A DNA stretch of 64,000 nt from Euryarchaeota archaeon RBG_19FT_COMBO_56_21 (GTDB lineage: Archaea; Thermoplasmatota; Thermoplasmata; UBA10834), in NCBI GenBank assembly GCA_001800815.1, contig MGWC01000061.1, forward strand, positions 11,193 to 75,192, given 5' to 3'. Below are positions 3,955 through 47,758 of this stretch, piece by piece (position 1 is the first letter of the stretch; the number at the start of each line of letters is the position of its first letter). The position numbers and the translations under genes were made by a program. Under the pieces are notes generated by a model. That model saw only the letters and a list, made by a program, of their open reading frames with translations, was not told where the DNA came from and did not search any database.

Positions 3955-5325
3955 TTGCGACCAGTGTCAGAATCTACTGTGCCCCAGCAAGGACCAATCT
4001 CTCAGGAGTTCTGCAGATTCTGTGGGGCTCAGACACCCACATCTGGCAACTATTGCTCCAGATGCGGGGCGATGAGCGGACAAGCGATGCAGTTGGGCAT
4101 GCCACCTGCCGGAAATCGACAGATATTCAACTACATGGGGCCCGTGAAGAAGACCGATTTTCGGCTCGTGGTCAAGACCATCTCCGCATTCATCATGCTC
4201 ACATTCCTCGCCCAGCTCGCGCTTTCTCTCGGTACGCTGCTCTACGGGGCAAACCTGGTCGTCCCTGATATCCTGGACACCTGGTCAGGATTCACGCTGT
4301 TCATAGTCGTGCCGGTTATGGTAGATCTCTTCACAATCTCTGGCTACGTCCTGCTCTCATACTACATGTTTCTAGTGTTCGCCATATTCGTGAGCTGTGT
4401 CTGGATATTCTTGACCAGCTTTCAAAGGTTCAAGAACGAACTGACTATGAAGGCGAAATCACGCGAACACAGTGCTCTATTTGATACAGTAGGCCTTCTG
4501 TTCGCAACGGTATTCTTCTCGGCCATCATCGGTCTCATCGTGAACCCGTCCCCCGAGGATTTACCGAGCACGGACTCGGTCTCGGAGATGCTTTTCGTGC
4601 TGGCCAACGCATCGGTCTGGGAAGAGATCGCGGTGAGGGTGCTGTTCATCGGACTTCCGCTCGTGCTCGTGGATCTCGCGAGGAGAGAGCGCCAGAAATA
4701 CTGGTACTCATACGCCATCGGCGGTGGAATGTCCATCGGGACACCGGAGACAATCCTCATCGTGGTCTCATCTTTGATTTTCGGCGTTGGTCATTTCACG
4801 GGTGGATGGGGCGCCTGGAAGATACTGCCGGCCACGGTCGGAGGGATCGCATTCGGCTACCTATTCCTGAAGTTCGGAATCGCAGCCTCGATCATGATGC
4901 ATTTCGGAACCGACTACTTGTCGATGCCCTCCGAGGTGACAGGCTCTACAGCGCTCCTTATCCTGACCGGAATCGGAATCCTGGTTTGGCTAGGGGTTGG
5001 CGCTGGATTCTTCGTTTACTACACCACGAGAATACTTGAGTTCTTGACTGGAAGGACTTTCTTCGGACCGAAACCGGAGATTTATCCTCAGCCATGGGGA
5101 TTTCCACCCGCATATCCGTACACACAAACACAGCAATATCCGCCGCAGGCACCATCGGGCGCGTGGCAACAACCTCCTGGTGCTCCGCAGTATCAGCCAG
5201 GCCCTTACAGTCATCCTGTGCAATCTTGGTTCACAGACGGATATGTGTGCCCCGCATGCGGGTTCGCACAGGCTCGCTGGGTCAACGGTAGATTCCAGTG
5301 CATGAGGTGCGGGAGACTATCATAG
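3955..5325 (+). CDS. CPBP-family (CAAX-type) intramembrane metalloprotease with N- and C-terminal zinc ribbons
   Basis: Multi-TM core with CPBP motifs EEIAVR (EExxxR), FGVGH (FxxxH) and HFGTD (HxxxD/N). It has an N-terminal CRFCG...CSRCG and a C-terminal CPACG...CMRCG, with a P/Q/Y-rich linker before the last ribbon. Confidence 0.7.
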   Translation: MRPVSESTVPQQGPISQEFCRFCGAQTPTSGNYCSRCGAMSGQAMQLGMPPAGNRQIFNYMGPVKKTDFRLVVKTISAFIMLTFLAQLALSLGTLLYGANLVVPDILDTWSGFTLFIVVPVMVDLFTISGYVLLSYYMFLVFAIFVSCVWIFLTSFQRFKNELTMKAKSREHSALFDTVGLLFATVFFSAIIGLIVNPSPEDLPSTDSVSEMLFVLANASVWEEIAVRVLFIGLPLVLVDLARRERQKYWYSYAIGGGMSIGTPETILIVVSSLIFGVGHFTGGWGAWKILPATVGGIAFGYLFLKFGIAASIMMHFGTDYLSMPSEVTGSTALLILTGIGILVWLGVGAGFFVYYTTRILEFLTGRTFFGPKPEIYPQPWGFPPAYPYTQTQQYPPQAPSGAWQQPPGAPQYQPGPYSHPVQSWFTDGYVCPACGFAQARWVNGRFQCMRCGRLS

Positions 5326-10163: not shown

Positions 10164-11543
10164 TCACTTCTTCTTCACAGTCGGGTGATACTTCTCGATG
10201 AACTTCCTGTCGATCTTCGTGAGTGAGTCCAAGGGCAACATTGATAGAAGCTCCCAGCCGAGTTCGAGTGTCTGCTCGATCGTGCGGTCCTCATCCTTGC
10301 CCTGGCGAACGAACCTGTCCTCGAATGCATCCGCGAAGTCCAGGAACTTCCTATCCCTATCTGACAGGGCCTCCTTGCCGACGATCGCGACCAGACCACG
10401 CAGATCTCTACCCTCCGCGTATCCGGCATACAACTGGTCCGAAACTGCCCTGTGATCCTCGCGAGTGCGGCCTGGGCCGATCCCTTGCCCCATTAGTCTC
10501 GATAGGGAGCGCTCGACGGCGATCGGTGGGAATATTCCTTTCCTGTGAAGGTCTCTGGACGCGACAATCTGTCCCTCCGTGATGTATCCGGTAAGGTCGG
10601 GAATGGGGTGCGTGATGTCGTCTCCCGGCATTGAGAGGATCGGGAACTGAGTGATTGAACCTTTCTTGTCCTTGATTCTCCCAGCCCGCTCGTACATGGA
10701 CGCCAGGTCGGTGTACATGTATCCAGGGTAACCCCGTCTCGCGGGTACTTCCTCTCTCGCGGCCCCGATCTGTCGCAGTGCCTCCGAGTAGTTCGTGATA
10801 TCTGTGAGTATCACGAGGACGTGCATCCCGAGATCGAAAGCGAGGTACTCCGCGGTGGTGAGCGCGAGTCTTGGAGTCAGCAGCCTCTCGATCGCAGGAT
10901 CGTCCGCGAGGTTGAGGAACACGACCGCCCTCTTCAGAGCGCCCGTCCTCTCGAAGTCCTTCATGAAGTATTGGGCCTCCTCGCTCGTAATGCCCATGGC
11001 GGCGAATACGACCGCGAACTCCTCCTTCCCGCCTAGGACCTTGGCCTGTCTCGCGATCTGTAACGCGATGTCGTTGTGCGGCAGACCAGCACCCGAGAAT
11101 ATCGGAAGCTTCTGACCGCGGACGAGCGTATTCATCCCGTCTATCGACGAGATTCCCGTCTGGATGAACTCCTGGGGGTTGTCCCTGGCCCACGGGTTGA
11201 TGGCTGCACCGATGATCTCCAGCCGCTTCTCCGGGATGATAGGGGGGCCGTTATCGAGTGGATCTCCAGAGCCGTTCAGTATCCTGCCGAGCATGTCCTT
11301 CGCAACGGGCATCTTGACGGTCTCTCCGAGGAACTTCACTCCCGAAGCCCTGTCGATGCCTCCCGTCCCCTCGAACACCTGGACAACCACGACCTCATCA
11401 GAGGTATCCAAGACCTGTCCTCTCTTCGTGCTCCCGTCTGGAAGCGTGATCTGCACGAGCTCGCCGAAGCCAATGGGTTCCGTCTTCTCTACGAAGACAA
11501 GCGGTCCTGCAATCTGGTTGATGGTGTGGTATTCCTTGGCCAT
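10164..11543 (-). CDS. atpB: A-type ATP synthase subunit B
   Basis: [20 protein letters not shown]... and strong overall A1 B-subunit similarity. The tracked ORF (to 11972) is an out-of-gene 5' extension overlapping atpA. AGGAGG lies 9 nt upstream of the ATG at 11543. Confidence 0.95.
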
Positions 11544-43886: not shown

Positions 43887-43894
43887 CTAATATC
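43887..43894 (+). promoter_or_regulatory. TATA box (CTAATATC) for the KaiC-like trio
   Basis: Lies about 29 nt upstream of the ATG at 43920, consistent with a leaderless mRNA. Confidence 0.4.
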
Positions 43895-43919
43895 GGTTCC
43901 ATTGCATACTCGAAGAGTG

Positions 43920-44669
43920 ATGGTGGCTAAGACTGCCGAAAGGGACCGCTGCGTCACGGGCGTCGAGGGCCTCGACACAATCCTCTACGGCGGCATCCCC
44001 CGGTCCAACACAGTGCTTCTGACTGGCAGCTGCGGCACTGGCAAGACATCGCTGGCGCTCGAGTTCCTGATGCATGGGGCCGTCAAGGACGAGAACTCGC
44101 TTTTCGTGAGCGTCACCGAGAATTCCGAGAAGCTGCTGCAGAACATCATCCCGTACAAGTTCTTCGACAAGAGCTTGATCAAGTCCGGCCGGCTCGTGTT
44201 CGTGGACATGCCTGTGATGTATGAGCGTCTTGGGCTCACGAAGGCGGAGCTGAGCATGGAAGAGATAGAGCTGCTGGTCAACTCGCTCGCGAGCCTGGCC
44301 AAGGAGCTCCAGACCAAGCGCCTAGTGATAGACTCCATCACATCCGTCTGTTACAAGCTGAAGACCTCGGAGAAGATCCGGGATTTCATCCTGAAGCTGT
44401 CCAAGGCCCTGTCTGACCTCGGGTGCACTTCGATATTGGTGGGAGAGGTGACCGCCGATTCGGCTTCGTACTCCACATTCGGAGTGGAGGAGGCAATCGC
44501 AGACGGCATCATACTTATGGCGAACATGGAGAGGCGCGGGGACCTCCTCCGTACGCTTCAAGTGATAAAGATGCGTGGCACGATGCATTCTCGGGCCAAG
44601 TACGTGCTCGACCTCACACCGGTCGGCGTGCTACTTGTCCCGCTCCTGAAGGGAGGTAGCACAGGATGA
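43920..44669 (+). CDS. KaiC-like / RecA-superfamily ATPase (intact P-loop)
   Basis: GVEGLDTILYGGIP, Walker A GSCGTGKTS, Walker B RLVIDSIT and C-terminal IKMRGTMH. Confidence 0.8.
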   Translation: MVAKTAERDRCVTGVEGLDTILYGGIPRSNTVLLTGSCGTGKTSLALEFLMHGAVKDENSLFVSVTENSEKLLQNIIPYKFFDKSLIKSGRLVFVDMPVMYERLGLTKAELSMEEIELLVNSLASLAKELQTKRLVIDSITSVCYKLKTSEKIRDFILKLSKALSDLGCTSILVGEVTADSASYSTFGVEEAIADGIILMANMERRGDLLRTLQVIKMRGTMHSRAKYVLDLTPVGVLLVPLLKGGSTG

Positions 44670-45259
44670 GCCCGGAGATGGTGAGTGCTCAGCAGATAGC
44701 GTCAGAGTTGAACGAGACGCCACCCTCGTCCGCCGTATCGCTCCAGATGAGCGTGGACAACTACCTGGATGTCATCCGCGGAGTGGTCGACCTTTTCGCC
44801 AACAAGAGGCAGATGGACACGATCTACGTCGCCGCGACGATCTCATCGGACGCGATCAAGCGGGTGCTCCAGGCGCTGGACATCGACGACTCGCGGGTGT
44901 ACTTCGTGGACTGCATATCCCACATCATGTTGGGCGCGACCGCAACTCAGCAGGACGAGCAGACTACCTTGGTCGAGAGTCCTACGATGCTCGAGAACAT
45001 CATGCTGAAGGTCGAGTACCTCATTCGTAGGTCGCAGTCGAAGGACAAGCTGGTCGTCATAGATTCCATCAATTCGCTGGCGATCCACAACAACAACTGG
45101 ATCCTGTCCGAATTCCTGCATGTTCTGGTCTCTGGTCTTCGGTCCAGGGACGCATATACTGTCATTCTCACAGTGGAAGAACACTCGACCCCCGAGCTGA
45201 ACAACATGGTGAGCCTCGTGTGCGATCACGGCATACACGCGGGCAAGAAGGAGGGATGA
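44666..45259 (+). CDS. P-loop-less KaiC/DUF835-like protein
   Basis: It has no GxxGxGK[ST] motif but keeps a Walker-B-like strand, KLVVIDSINSL. By eye it is collinear with the DUF835 protein at 1151-1669 (VLLDGLEYL vs VVIDSINSL; LIVPIDP vs VILTVEE). ATGA start/stop overlap with the upstream gene. Confidence 0.55.
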   Translation: MSPEMVSAQQIASELNETPPSSAVSLQMSVDNYLDVIRGVVDLFANKRQMDTIYVAATISSDAIKRVLQALDIDDSRVYFVDCISHIMLGATATQQDEQTTLVESPTMLENIMLKVEYLIRRSQSKDKLVVIDSINSLAIHNNNWILSEFLHVLVSGLRSRDAYTVILTVEEHSTPELNNMVSLVCDHGIHAGKKEG

Positions 45260-45260
45260 G

Positions 45261-45995
45261 GTGAATTTCACTAGCATCGGGATACCTGCGCTGGACGAGC
45301 ACCTTGGAGGAGGGATACACAAGGGCTCGACTGTCCTGGTCATGGGCAGCCCGGGCTCGGGCACGGAGTTCTTCGCGAAGCAGTTCGCCTCGACTGGCCG
45401 GGAGGCCGTGACCTACTTCACGTCGACCGAGAGGGACGAGGACGTCTTGTCCGTCATGCGCGAGTACGGGTGGAGGACGGACATGAAGATAATCAACGTG
45501 GGCACGAAGTACTACGAGCGCGTGCTCGCGAAGAAGCTAGAGATCAGCAGGTTCAGGCAGGAGGGGATCACCCTCGGGGACATCAGGAAATTCAAGGAGG
45601 GTGACGCCGCGAAGGAAGAGAACTTCTTGACCTTCCTAGCGTACGAGATATCGAAGCTCAACCCTCCGTTCCGGGTCGTCATCAACTCCTTGGACTTCTT
45701 CCTCGAGAACTATGAGAGCCCTGAGGTGCTCATGGCGATGCGGACGATCAAGGCCCACACGCAGCACTCCGAGAGCGTGACGCTCATGACCATGCTCAAG
45801 GGAGTGCACGAATCCCGCATTCAGAGCAGCATCGAGGATTTATCAGATGTGATAATAGAATTGGACCGCGAGAAGGTCGGCCACGAGTTCAAGAAGTACA
45901 TCATTGTCCAAAAGGTGAGGAACAGGCCCTCGCAGGTGGGCATCATACCGGCTGTCTACGACAAGACGGGGATCCGGCCGGCACAGGCCCCTTAG
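45261..45995 (+). CDS. KaiC-like protein with degenerate Walker A and B (predicted pseudo-ATPase)
   Basis: GIPALDEHLGGGI, then GSPGSGTEF in place of GxxGxGKT, and VVINSLD in place of hhhhDS. The GTG start is 1 nt after the upstream stop and is preceded by AGGAGGGA. Confidence 0.6.
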   Translation: MNFTSIGIPALDEHLGGGIHKGSTVLVMGSPGSGTEFFAKQFASTGREAVTYFTSTERDEDVLSVMREYGWRTDMKIINVGTKYYERVLAKKLEISRFRQEGITLGDIRKFKEGDAAKEENFLTFLAYEISKLNPPFRVVINSLDFFLENYESPEVLMAMRTIKAHTQHSESVTLMTMLKGVHESRIQSSIEDLSDVIIELDREKVGHEFKKYIIVQKVRNRPSQVGIIPAVYDKTGIRPAQAP

Positions 45996-46157
45996 GTCAG
46001 TAGTCGCTTCTTTCGGGATAATTGTCGTTTTCTGCCGAAGATGCTCCTAAACAAGAAGACTACGTCTTCTTGCCCTGGCCAGCAAATGCGACATAGCCAG
46101 ATGTGTCACTTCGACAATCGGCGAAACGACTAACACTCAATTCTGATAATCGGCCGA

Positions 46158-46170
46158 AAAGGTATTTAAG
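46158..46170 (+). promoter_or_regulatory. BRE/TATA box GAAAAGGTATTTAAG for the pilin-like gene
   Basis: Lies about 60 nt upstream of the ATG at 46229. The 5' UTR contains AGGAGG at 46215-46220. Confidence 0.5.
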
Positions 46171-46228
46171 CTCAGCTCGGGCGTATTACAGTCCAAGCGG
46201 GCCGAAAGGTCCGCAGGAGGACTAAACA

Positions 46229-46759
46229 ATGAAGAAGATTTGGGCAATCCGAAAGGATGCCGAGGCGGTGTCCCCCGTCATTGCGACCATCCTGATGGTC
46301 GCGATCACCGTCGTTCTAGCGGCCGTGCTATATGTCATGGTCCTGGGCTTCGGAGGGACATCGACTACAACCCCAGCCGCGACGTATGCGAAGACGACCG
46401 CAACGAACGGTCAGAAAATCAGCATCCTGTCAATAACGAAGACGGATGTACCATGGGACGACGTGAAGGTGCAGCTTTCTGATGGAACCAACTTCGCCGA
46501 GTGGGACACAGTGACAACTGACCTAGACGGCGGAGGCGCATTAACGAAGAACTACACCACGGACACCCTTGGATCGCTGACCGTATGCTTGCTTGTGACT
46601 GATGTGAGCGGTAATGGATTCGTGAGTGGCACTGACTACTTCGTCGTGTACACCTACGGTGGCGCGACCGGCTTCTCAGCTGGCTCTTCGTACAGTGCAG
46701 CGCTGATATACACGGTCACTGGCGAAAAGATGGGCACTGGTCAGACCTTCACAGGCTAG
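46229..46759 (+). CDS. archaeal type IV pilin-like protein (class III signal peptide, DUF1628/Pilin_N type)
   Basis: MKKIWAIRKDAEA|VSPVIATILMVAITVVLAAVLYVMV is a canonical prepilin-peptidase-type N-terminus. It is followed by a Thr-rich, beta-rich domain. Confidence 0.75.
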   Translation: MKKIWAIRKDAEAVSPVIATILMVAITVVLAAVLYVMVLGFGGTSTTTPAATYAKTTATNGQKISILSITKTDVPWDDVKVQLSDGTNFAEWDTVTTDLDGGGALTKNYTTDTLGSLTVCLLVTDVSGNGFVSGTDYFVVYTYGGATGFSAGSSYSAALIYTVTGEKMGTGQTFTG

Positions 46760-46823
46760 ACCTAGTGTTACTAACTCGCGGTCGGACTGAGCACAAACCC
46801 TTTCTTTCACTTTTCATTCTCTG

Positions 46824-47138
46824 ATGCGTGCGAAAGCCACGTCTCATTTCTCCAGTCCATCGATGGAAAGTCATATCACCGCCCAAGTGATGGCTCTCTC
46901 CATGAAGGGCGGCGAGGGCCCGCTCGTGATGAGCGGCGATGAGGCGGAGAAGTTCGTCATATCTCTGCTGAGAGAACGGGGTCCGCTCACGACCATGCAA
47001 ATCGAGCAGCTCGCTCGGAATGAGCACAAGCGCTGCCCCGACCAGACGGTCATCTTTCTGACGAAGATGAAGCGAAAGGGCCTCATAAAGGGGGAGGCCT
47101 CGCTCGAGAAGAGGGGTTGGCTCTGGTGGGCTCCCTGA
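46824..47138 (+). CDS. small winged-helix-like hypothetical protein
   Basis: EAEKFVISLLRERGPLTTMQIEQLARNEH...VIFLTKMKRKGLIKGE looks like a wHTH. The true start is uncertain because several in-frame Met codons follow. Confidence 0.4.
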   Translation: MRAKATSHFSSPSMESHITAQVMALSMKGGEGPLVMSGDEAEKFVISLLRERGPLTTMQIEQLARNEHKRCPDQTVIFLTKMKRKGLIKGEASLEKRGWLWWAP

Positions 47139-47150
47139 AGTGAGGTCGGC

Positions 47151-47573
47151 CTAGTGCAGCATCACGGATGTCCTCGCCATCTGGTCTGACCACTTCTGTC
47201 TGGGATCCTGCGAGTCTATCGCCAGGCCGATGATCCAATCGAGGAGCAGCAGCGGCCAGAATATCTTGGAGATGTTCCTCATCAAGGCCTGGGCAATGTC
47301 CAGCTTCCCTGAGGTCCCGACGACCTTCAGCCTCATGAGCATCTTGCCCACCGTGCCGCCGATCAAGTACTCGAAGAATGCGCAGTAGAGGAAGAAGAGA
47401 GCTCCTTGCGTGCCGATGGACCAGATGGACAGCCAACCGAAGCTCAACACGCTGAAGAACAGCGTGAATGGAAGCCAAATGATCAGCGCGTCAATGATCA
47501 AGGCTACGAACCTTCTCAGCCAATGCTCCTGAAGGGCCTTGTCCCGGCTCAGGTAGTCAAATCCTGTTACCAT
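47151..47573 (-). CDS. RDD-family membrane protein
   Basis: The N-terminal R-D...WLRRFVALIIDALIIWLP pattern and three TM helices. Confidence 0.55.
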   Translation of the reverse strand: MVTGFDYLSRDKALQEHWLRRFVALIIDALIIWLPFTLFFSVLSFGWLSIWSIGTQGALFFLYCAFFEYLIGGTVGKMLMRLKVVGTSGKLDIAQALMRNISKIFWPLLLLDWIIGLAIDSQDPRQKWSDQMARTSVMLH

Positions 47574-47758
47574 GGTTCTGCAACTCCGCCATCCCTCGGA
47601 TGCCTCGCCCCTCTATATTATTTTCTGGGGGCGGCTACCACTCAGATCGCCCGTCTTTCATCACATGTCAGCAGGAATGTTCTCTTCACGGTGGCGGACG
47701 CATATCTACGCCTTACCTTATGAATAGTGAGGCCAGGTTTGTGTCTCTCTCCCGTACT

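Follow-up and report, generated by a model that had tools for sequence, protein, structure and literature searches.

KaiC-like ATPases of archaea, together with inactivated partners, have been proposed to act as hubs of signal transduction (Makarova, Galperin & Koonin 2017; Galperin et al. 2018, PMC5847659), and the latter article, citing Makarova et al. 2017, treats iKaiC, DUF835 and MEDS as inactivated KaiC-like domains. A connection with surface filaments is also on record, as the KaiC families arCOG01171, 01174 and 01175 are strongly associated with type IV pilus systems (Makarova 2016, PMC4858521), arCOG01175 being listed as "inactivated" in Table S4 of that study, where in Archaeoglobus it is placed next to FlaI/TadC together with arCOG03793, a family of the DUF835 type. 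CirA, a KaiC-like protein of Haloferax volcanii, acts in pilin-dependent motility regulation (PMC10983859). Here we describe a cassette of three consecutive KaiC-family genes (genes 1, 2 and 3, the trio), one with intact and two with disrupted ATPase motifs, which is followed by a type IV pilin gene. The cassette lies in a 64,000-nucleotide (nt) stretch of DNA, referred to as the window, from an uncultured Thermoplasmata archaeon, Euryarchaeota archaeon RBG_19FT_COMBO_56_21 (assembly GCA_001800815.1, contig MGWC01000061.1, positions 11,193-75,192 of the forward strand); coordinates given below are positions in the window.

The open reading frame (ORF) map and the junction sequences confirm that the three genes are tightly coupled (Table 1). 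The gene 1 stop and gene 2 start codons share the ATGA at 44666-44669, with a GGAGG located 10 nt upstream, and the gene 2 stop codon (45257-45259) is separated by a 1-nt spacer from the GTG of gene 3 at 45261 (TGA-g-GTG, 45257-45263), with a GGAGGG just upstream. The gene 1 reading frame is open from a TTG at 43902 and its likely start is the ATG at 43920, which corresponds to the N-terminus common to its orthologs; a preliminary description of this DNA had given 43887 as the first position, where no start codon is present. Across the loci compared below, the genes of the trio still overlap or lie no more than about 20 nt apart, and internal Shine-Dalgarno sites are maintained. All three genes belong to the KaiC/RecA family, genes 1, 2 and 3 matching Pfam KaiC (PF06745) with 186.6, 31.1 and 80.3 bits, respectively, against a gathering score of 26.6, and the products are single-domain proteins of 197-249 amino acids (aa).

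Among the trio, a Walker A motif of the form GxxxxGK[ST], a Walker B motif of the form hhhhD and the catalytic Glu occur together in gene 1 alone. Direct reading of the sequence gives canonical Walker A (GSCGTGKTS) and Walker B (LVIDS) motifs, the Pfam KaiC match has an E-value of 5.9e-55, and the PDB sequences matched are KaiC and Pyrococcus PH0186/PH0284 with E-values of 1e-33 to 1e-54. None of the 79 orthologs departs from GxxGTGKT, E67, D138 (in Walker B) or the finger segment KMRG..HS.

Gene 3 is related to KaiC over its full length (Pfam KaiC E = 1.8e-22), its residues 6-223 aligning with PH0186 in the PDB (E = 1.4e-10), PH0284 also being matched full length and hhalign pairing its family with that of gene 1 at a probability of 97%. 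Its Walker A motif reads GSPGSGTE (Lys to Thr) and its Walker B motif VVINS (Asp to Asn), exactly as had been reported. The Walker A Lys is missing in 69/69 orthologs, which carry T, A, M, V, I or S instead, and the Ser/Thr that follows this position is changed to Glu; in Walker B, 34 orthologs have Asp and 36 have Asn. Still present in gene 3 are a glycine-rich loop, E57 (the equivalent of the catalytic Glu) and the finger segment K218-x-R220.

Gene 2 is reduced further, as motif reading finds neither a glycine-rich loop (P-loop), the absence of which had already been remarked upon, nor a catalytic Glu, and the protein ends before the finger hairpin. A search of PDB sequences returned zero matches. 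The AlphaFold2 model (predicted local distance difference test score, pLDDT, 85.6; predicted template-modelling score, pTM, 0.83) gave as best Foldseek matches PH0284, KaiC CI and FlaH (4yds), with a probability of 1.0 and template-modelling (TM) scores of 0.6-0.68. As judged from Pfam and from Foldseek on this predicted structure, gene 2 has a KaiC/RecA fold, so that a RecA-like fold is supported for both of the disrupted proteins, in gene 3 by Pfam and the full-length PDB matches. By eye, gene 2 appears collinear with KaiC from the first strand to the strand past Walker B (FVDC with ILD, VVIDS with SIDS), and the motifs FVDC, VESPTMLE and DSxN are invariant in its family. The likeness to the DUF835 protein encoded at 1151-1669, seen earlier by eye, is only a weak similarity (BLASTP E = 0.068), and gene 2 is not a member of DUF835 (PF05763), the score being 15.6 bits against a cut-off of 33.1. 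Gene 2-like domains are found elsewhere fused to DUF835 and to TPR/SNAP giant proteins, and the occurrence of gene 2-like and DUF835 domains side by side in single polypeptides indicates that the two represent separate families of inactivated KaiC. For DUF7504 (PF24336) the gene 2 score is 24.0 bits, with a cut-off of 27, and many of its orthologs carry a precomputed PF24336 match. Genes 2 and 3 both fit the definition of iKaiC, a KaiC-fold domain with disrupted ATPase motifs (PMC5847659).

The trio resembles the iKaiC systems in that a single-domain KaiC-fold ATPase is encoded beside KaiC-fold proteins with disrupted Walker motifs, an arrangement of which the window's own V4R, KaiC and DUF835 genes (1151-2762) are a textbook example, and the gene 2-like fusions with DUF835 and TPR/SNAP giants are as expected of a signalling module. 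It differs in its fixed order of an active protein, a P-loop-less core and a full-length protein with a degenerate P-loop, in its phylum-wide conservation at a rate as slow as that of MCM, and in the position of gene 2 outside DUF835. With the KaiC genes of type IV pilus and archaellum loci (PMC4858521) it shares the placement of KaiC-like proteins, inactivated ones included, beside filament genes, where they are predicted regulators; however, the neighbour in the published cases is ATPase/TadC machinery, whereas the trio adjoins a PilA-type pilin that stands alone, machinery genes being absent for tens of kilobases around, and the cassette includes an intact ATPase. ArlH (FlaH), which regulates a type IV filament machine via its nucleotide or phospho state, is likewise a single-domain KaiC fold, is the top NCBIfam match of gene 3 and is matched, as 4yds, by the gene 2 model. 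In contrast, gene 3 and gene 1 score 55.8 and 39.8 bits against an ArlH cut-off of 215, no arlI/arlJ is present in the window or in the compared loci, and ArlH needs the Walker A motif that genes 2 and 3 have lost. CirA is KaiC-like and has a functional connection with type IV pilins, and genes for surface filaments are under its transcriptional control (PMC10983859), but it is a single protein in an arl cluster and not part of a hetero-paralog cassette. Nor is the trio bona fide circadian KaiC, which has tandem CI-CII domains and KaiB/KaiA partners: the trio proteins are single-domain, NCBIfam KaiC equivalog scores are at most 153 against cut-offs of 408 and 546, and no KaiB-like gene is found in the locus. 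By analogy only, Elp4/5/6 and the A3B3 assemblies of A1/V1/F1 also combine RecA-fold paralogs in which only some sites are catalytic and non-catalytic subunits can donate fingers, whereas for the trio a ring is a prediction.

Since inactivated KaiC proteins and the association of KaiC with pili are already catalogued (Makarova 2016; Galperin 2018), the concept is known. The claim to novelty in the preliminary description, whose author was not aware of a described cassette of one active and two dead KaiC proteins, is weakened accordingly, inactivated KaiC proteins and their position beside type IV pilus genes being on record (PMC5847659; PMC4858521). In the literature searched, Makarova et al. 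2017 excepted, the composition of the trio, its Thermoplasmatota-wide spread, its pairing with a stand-alone pilin and the conserved pilin control elements appear to be undescribed.

Conservation was followed from gene 2, which has 924 close database relatives and 638 clusters at 50% identity. A species-level scan (one genome per species, a 9-sequence gene 2 alignment as query) detected gene 2 relatives in 299 stretches, the best 80 of which were used for locus comparisons; a third, profile-based homolog search returned essentially the same close relatives again and did not widen the diversity. All 80 loci come from metagenome-assembled genomes (MAGs), labelled Thermoplasmata, Thermoplasmatota, Methanomassiliicoccales, Methanobacteriota or Euryarchaeota, together with one Aciduliprofundum MAG (L079). 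The closest species-level genome is "Euryarchaeota archaeon RBG_13_57_23", in which gene 2 is 98% identical. The order 1-2-3 is held in nearly all of the 80 loci, establishing that the three genes occur together in other genomes: gene 1 lies immediately before gene 2 in all of the 80 that reach far enough, and gene 3 follows gene 2 in about 70.

The sequences of all three proteins are under strong constraint. Protein identity between the window and a relative is 88-89% for the trio, 85% for MCM, 71% for NMD3, 67-69% for the pilin and 63% for the RDD protein encoded downstream, gene 2 being 89% identical to its ortholog at locus L001, where MCM is 85% identical. Nonsynonymous divergence (dN) from locus L006 is 0.087, 0.068 and 0.078 for genes 1, 2 and 3, respectively, compared with 0.106 for MCM and 0.23 for the pilin, synonymous divergence (dS) being saturated (above 1), which makes dN/dS values unreliable. 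By this measure, purifying selection on both "dead" subunits is as strong as on a replication protein, and the slow evolution of the trio, equal to that of MCM, argues that the "dead" copies are functional. Gene 1 is nearer to the other KaiC gene of the window (E = 3e-36) than to gene 3, indicating that the trio is not a recent tandem duplication.

The gene downstream of the trio encodes a type IV pilin, as the preliminary description had proposed from its prepilin signal. The protein matches Pilin_N (PF07790; 3e-13, 50.9 bits, cut-off 25.2) and TIGR02537 (1.8e-12, 46.5 bits, cut-off 20), and its class III signal reads MKKIWAIRKDAEA/VSPVIATILMVAITV, in which the slash marks the putative cleavage point of the motif EA/VS, followed by PVIATILMVAITVVLAAVLY. 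A motif search recovered the pilin from 56 other loci at a distance of 93-394 nt from gene 3, with hardly any variation in its leader, MKKIWAIRKDAEA/VSPVIATILMVAI. Downstream neighbours were counted in the 58 loci whose downstream sequence extends for 900 nt or more, 29 of them divergent (about 50-60% gene 2 identity), a pilin being scored when a pilin-like ORF begins within 1.5 kb of the cassette. A pilin, in one to three copies per locus, is present downstream in 52/58 loci, and the linkage is therefore not peculiar to this genome. In the 29 divergent loci a pilin is found in 23, Hps in 16, RDD in 13, the small gene that follows the pilin in 3 and MCM in 1; the pilin is the most persistent neighbour of the cassette once other synteny decays. 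A variant cassette, consisting of genes 1 and 2 followed directly by the pilin, occurs at L061, L062, L069 and L071.

The region between gene 3 and the pilin contains five elements that are conserved in an alignment of 37 loci, the last of which is the pilin ATG at 46229. The hairpin that abuts the gene 3 stop codon is partly conserved, its consensus being an inverted repeat followed by a T-run. The palindrome at 46053-46071 shows at least 90% sequence conservation, and no second copy of it is present anywhere in the window; it is a candidate operator for a dimeric regulator, possibly the small winged-helix-like protein encoded beyond the pilin. A B recognition element (BRE)/TATA block is conserved upstream of the pilin, supporting, in the case of the pilin gene only, the earlier suggestion of separate promoters for the downstream genes, and a transcription start is predicted at about 46195; a scan for sigma-70 promoters and terminators was uninformative, the host being archaeal. 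This start would probably put the stem-loop at 46197-46214, which has a GNRA-type loop and directly precedes the Shine-Dalgarno sequence of the pilin, at the extreme 5' terminus of the pilin mRNA. This leader hairpin shows covariation over 50 species-level loci, where its pairing holds in 80.5% of cells as against 23-42% in slid registers, and double-sided changes number 29 as against 10.4 in shuffles, none of 500 shuffles reaching as high. No Rfam family was matched by the hairpin and no other copy occurs in the window; it may function as an mRNA stabiliser or as a translational control element. Together, the hairpin with T-run, the palindrome, the BRE/TATA block and the stem-loop indicate that the pilin is a separate regulated transcription unit.

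Table 1. Features of the cassette and its downstream region in the window.
Feature	Position	Strand	Description
Gene 1	43920..44669	+	Predicted single-domain KaiC-like ATPase, catalytic motifs intact
Gene 2	44666..45259	+	KaiC-fold protein without P-loop and without C-terminal Arg-finger segment; inactivated KaiC, near DUF7504
Gene 3	45261..45995	+	Full-length KaiC-like protein, degenerate Walker A and Walker B; GTG start
Hairpin and T-run	45996..46035	+	Directly 3' of gene 3 stop; terminator-like, putative function
Perfect inverted repeat	46053..46071		AAGAAGAC-TAC-GTCTTCTT; candidate operator, about 90 nt upstream of pilin TATA box
BRE/TATA-like pilin promoter	46155..46170	+	CGAAAAGG TATTTAA; conserved block in 37-locus alignment
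5' leader stem-loop	46197..46214	+	GCGGGCC-GAAA-GGTCCGC; abuts Shine-Dalgarno AGGAGGA (46215-46221)
Pilin	46229..46759	+	Stand-alone PilA-type type IV pilin, class III signal peptide
Small conserved protein	46929..47138	+	Winged-helix-like, core about 69 aa; possible start 46890; membership of system uncertain
RDD-family small membrane protein	47151..47573	-	Convergent; membership of system uncertain

We favour, with a confidence only slightly better than even, the explanation that the trio forms one hetero-oligomeric KaiC/RecA-type complex, a nucleotide- or phospho-state switch whose output is directed at the adjacent pilin. Translational coupling, co-inheritance and equally strong constraint are as expected for subunits of one complex, and the persistence of the pilin next to the trio suggests that the output is the expression of pilin or the assembly of pili. 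In such a complex, which may be a ring, gene 1 would be the only subunit with canonical ATP binding and hydrolysis, and would possibly autophosphorylate. Gene 3 would be a full-length non-catalytic paralog; with its trans-acting Lys/Arg finger segment retained, it could contribute to an adjacent gene 1 subunit the residues that complete the ATP site there, whereas gene 2, being without both P-loop and finger, would be a stripped-down KaiC core serving as a spacer, structural or adaptor subunit. Like the archaeal KaiC-type regulators ArlH, CirA and GvpD, among others, the complex would switch with its nucleotide or phospho state, and it would influence either the expression of the pilin gene or genes, for which the palindrome, promoter and 5' leader hairpin are candidate control points, or the assembly of pilin by type IV pilus machinery encoded elsewhere.

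Several observations weigh against this explanation. With regard to the complex itself, hhalign of the gene 2 family with the gene 1 family was not significant, and with the gene 3 family the alignment was collinear yet weak (E = 0.0097). Gene 3 is absent from the four loci with the variant cassette, so that a strict three-subunit ring is not obligatory. In favour of the complex, three of these four loci show changes at eight gene 1 positions for which conservation elsewhere is at least 95%, as compared with none of 41 conserved gene 2 positions, which is compatible with contact between genes 1 and 3, although this evidence is weak because the changes possibly represent one evolutionary event. 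With regard to the output, six of the 58 loci (L050, L073, L075, L077, L078 and L079) have a trio that is still well conserved but no pilin next to it, indicating that the function of the trio is not strictly dependent on that pilin and may be broader. The rate at which the trio evolves is far below that of the pilin, which fits a core cellular role at least as well as that of a dedicated pilus regulator. The trio is without a DNA-binding domain, and the small winged-helix-like gene, present in 30 loci, is found mainly in the close clade and in only 3/37 divergent loci, a second neighbour count having taken in 37 of these. A Pfam scan of 35 window ORFs, four of which had no match, detected no PilB/ArlI, TadC/ArlJ or prepilin peptidase, in agreement with the preliminary description, and none is encoded in about 10 kb past each window end.

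Some of these observations would be accommodated if the trio were a general KaiC-type signalling or housekeeping complex with another target, as a hub or as a Rad55/aRadC-type DNA factor, and the pilin simply an inherited neighbour. We regard this, the main rival reading, as possible, though doubtful. The six loci in which the trio persists without a pilin, including that of the Aciduliprofundum MAG, are in its favour, as are the MCM-like rate of the trio, about a third of that of the pilin, and the presence of several further KaiC/inactivated-KaiC modules in the genome. The names "RAD55 family ATPase" and "recombinase RecA" given by NCBI to the trio orthologs point in the same direction, but gene 1 scores only 28.6 against the RadB model (cut-off 278) and 18.9 against the RadA model (cut-off 259), far below what either model demands. 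Similarly, in the close clade the trio is located among the housekeeping genes primase, MCM, Tsr3 and NMD3, but linkage to MCM and primase is gone in the divergent loci, where it is the pilin that outlasts Hps, RDD, MCM and the small gene. The pilin is, moreover, still found right after gene 2 where gene 3 has been lost.

It is very unlikely that the KaiC-like complex is itself a cytoplasmic pilin engine or chaperone that acts in insertion, extraction, assembly or membrane-pool sensing, perhaps together with the RDD protein, and replaces PilB/ArlI-TadC in Thermoplasmata lineages reported to be without secretion ATPases. Such a function would explain why no pilus ATPase or platform gene is found near any of the 80 loci or in the window, and would be in keeping with the unusually invariant cytoplasmic leader of the pilin. 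Methanomassiliicoccus species are reported to be without VirB11-family secretion ATPases (Makarova 2016, PMC4858521), and MAGs labelled Methanomassiliicoccales carry the cassette and pilin. However, a RecA/KaiC-type pilin motor is without known precedent, and archaeal stand-alone pilins far from machinery are normal (PMC4858521; PMC12448462). The recurrence of an RDD membrane protein downstream, which might supply a membrane partner, extends to just 13/29 divergent loci, and the trio occurs without a pilin in several lineages.

It is highly improbable that the trio corresponds in archaea to the RecA-like Elp4/5/6 hetero-hexamer of eukaryotes and acts on tRNA/RNA. Elp456 consists of three RecA-fold paralogs with degenerate nucleotide sites, a composition that recalls the cassette, and gene 3 scores 27.2 bits against PAXNEB/Elp4 (cut-off 28) and gene 2 20.5 bits against Elong_Iki1/Elp5 (cut-off 22.5). 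These matches are sub-threshold and involve brief stretches (residues 3-43 and 92-156) that are generic to the RecA superfamily, KaiC models give much higher scores and there is no ELP6 match; no gene for Elp3 or for tRNA modification accompanies the trio at any locus, the pilin being the neighbour that is conserved. Membership of the trio in Elp4/5/6 was therefore rejected. That genes 2 and 3 are functionless, decaying duplicates of gene 1, as the loss of catalytic motifs might imply, is next to impossible, being refuted by ORFs that remain intact over 80 loci (about 70 for gene 3), by dN values at or below that of MCM, by invariant motifs peculiar to each family and by the closer relationship of gene 1 to another KaiC of the window than to gene 3. 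A function in anti-phage defence was also considered and set aside, as PADLOC gave only a partial mad8 match, for gene 1, and the locus belongs to the syntenic core of the genome and does not form a defence island.

Beyond the pilin, the small gene gave sub-threshold Pfam matches to Penicillinase_R, MarR, TrmB and Replic_Relax, and a PDB profile search with it returned nothing relevant. Its single-sequence AlphaFold2 model (pLDDT 73) consists of three helices and a wing, and all identifiable Foldseek matches of this model are winged-helix domains, but with E-values of at least 0.29. The convergent gene that follows encodes an RDD-family membrane protein, as had been suggested (Pfam RDD, 2.2e-15), and RDD is encoded downstream in 41 loci, 13/37 of the divergent ones included. 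An 84-aa gene on the opposite strand (MLFVT.LK..PGK..EA...), GYD-domain-like by eye, recurs at 14 divergent loci some 2 kb beyond the cassette, for example at 10399-10653 (-) of L070. At the loci without an adjacent pilin, the N-termini of proteins encoded downstream appear by eye to be sugar nucleotidyltransferase-like and mevalonate kinase-like; ORFs downstream at L073 that seemed pilin-like by eye received no family support.

The second KaiC module of the window is encoded on the reverse strand at 1151-2762 and comprises a V4R gene (2355-2762), a KaiC-like ATPase gene (1679 to about 2353) and, after a 9-nt spacer, the DUF835 gene (1151-1669), an active-then-inactive layout like that of genes 1 and 2. 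The V4R small-molecule-binding protein is likely to be the input of this module. About 1.9 kb from it, just past the left window end (L084, 12375-15938), lies a gene for a 1187-aa adhesin-like protein with a Pilin_N N-terminus and FG-GAP repeats, a 377-aa gene with helix-turn-helix (HTH) and STAND-like AAA domains being located between the two. With the pilin beside the trio, this protein places both KaiC modules of the region near proteins with class III signals. Past the right window end (L085, 5509-7638), a 709-aa protein combines a DnaA/IstB-like AAA domain with a C-terminal DUF835, another sign that inactivated-KaiC modules have expanded in this genome. Other genes among the scanned ORFs include an A-type ATP synthase operon, MttB, Cdc6, HflX, TiaS, Lhr, thiolase, FtsY and MCM, and an Rce1-like CAAX protease is encoded at 3955-5325. 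Between RDD and Tsr3, a candidate C/D-box small RNA was detected at 47640-47693 (-), with the boxes GUGAAGA...CUGA...GUGAUGA...CUGA and a sub-threshold score of 27 bits, against 42, for Rfam sR2.

KaiC-like ATPases are proposed to be major signalling hubs of archaea, of which almost none is characterised, and their inactivated paralogs are known from comparative genomics alone. The cassette represents a defined, phylum-wide system in which one live and two differently disabled KaiC-fold subunits are all under strong purifying selection, and for which the pilin gene, its promoter, palindrome and leader hairpin all being conserved, is a clear candidate output. Should the predicted mixed ring be real, it would constitute a prokaryotic RecA-fold hetero-oligomer with dedicated non-catalytic subunits and would provide a tractable model of the control exerted by a KaiC-type switch over archaeal surface structures.

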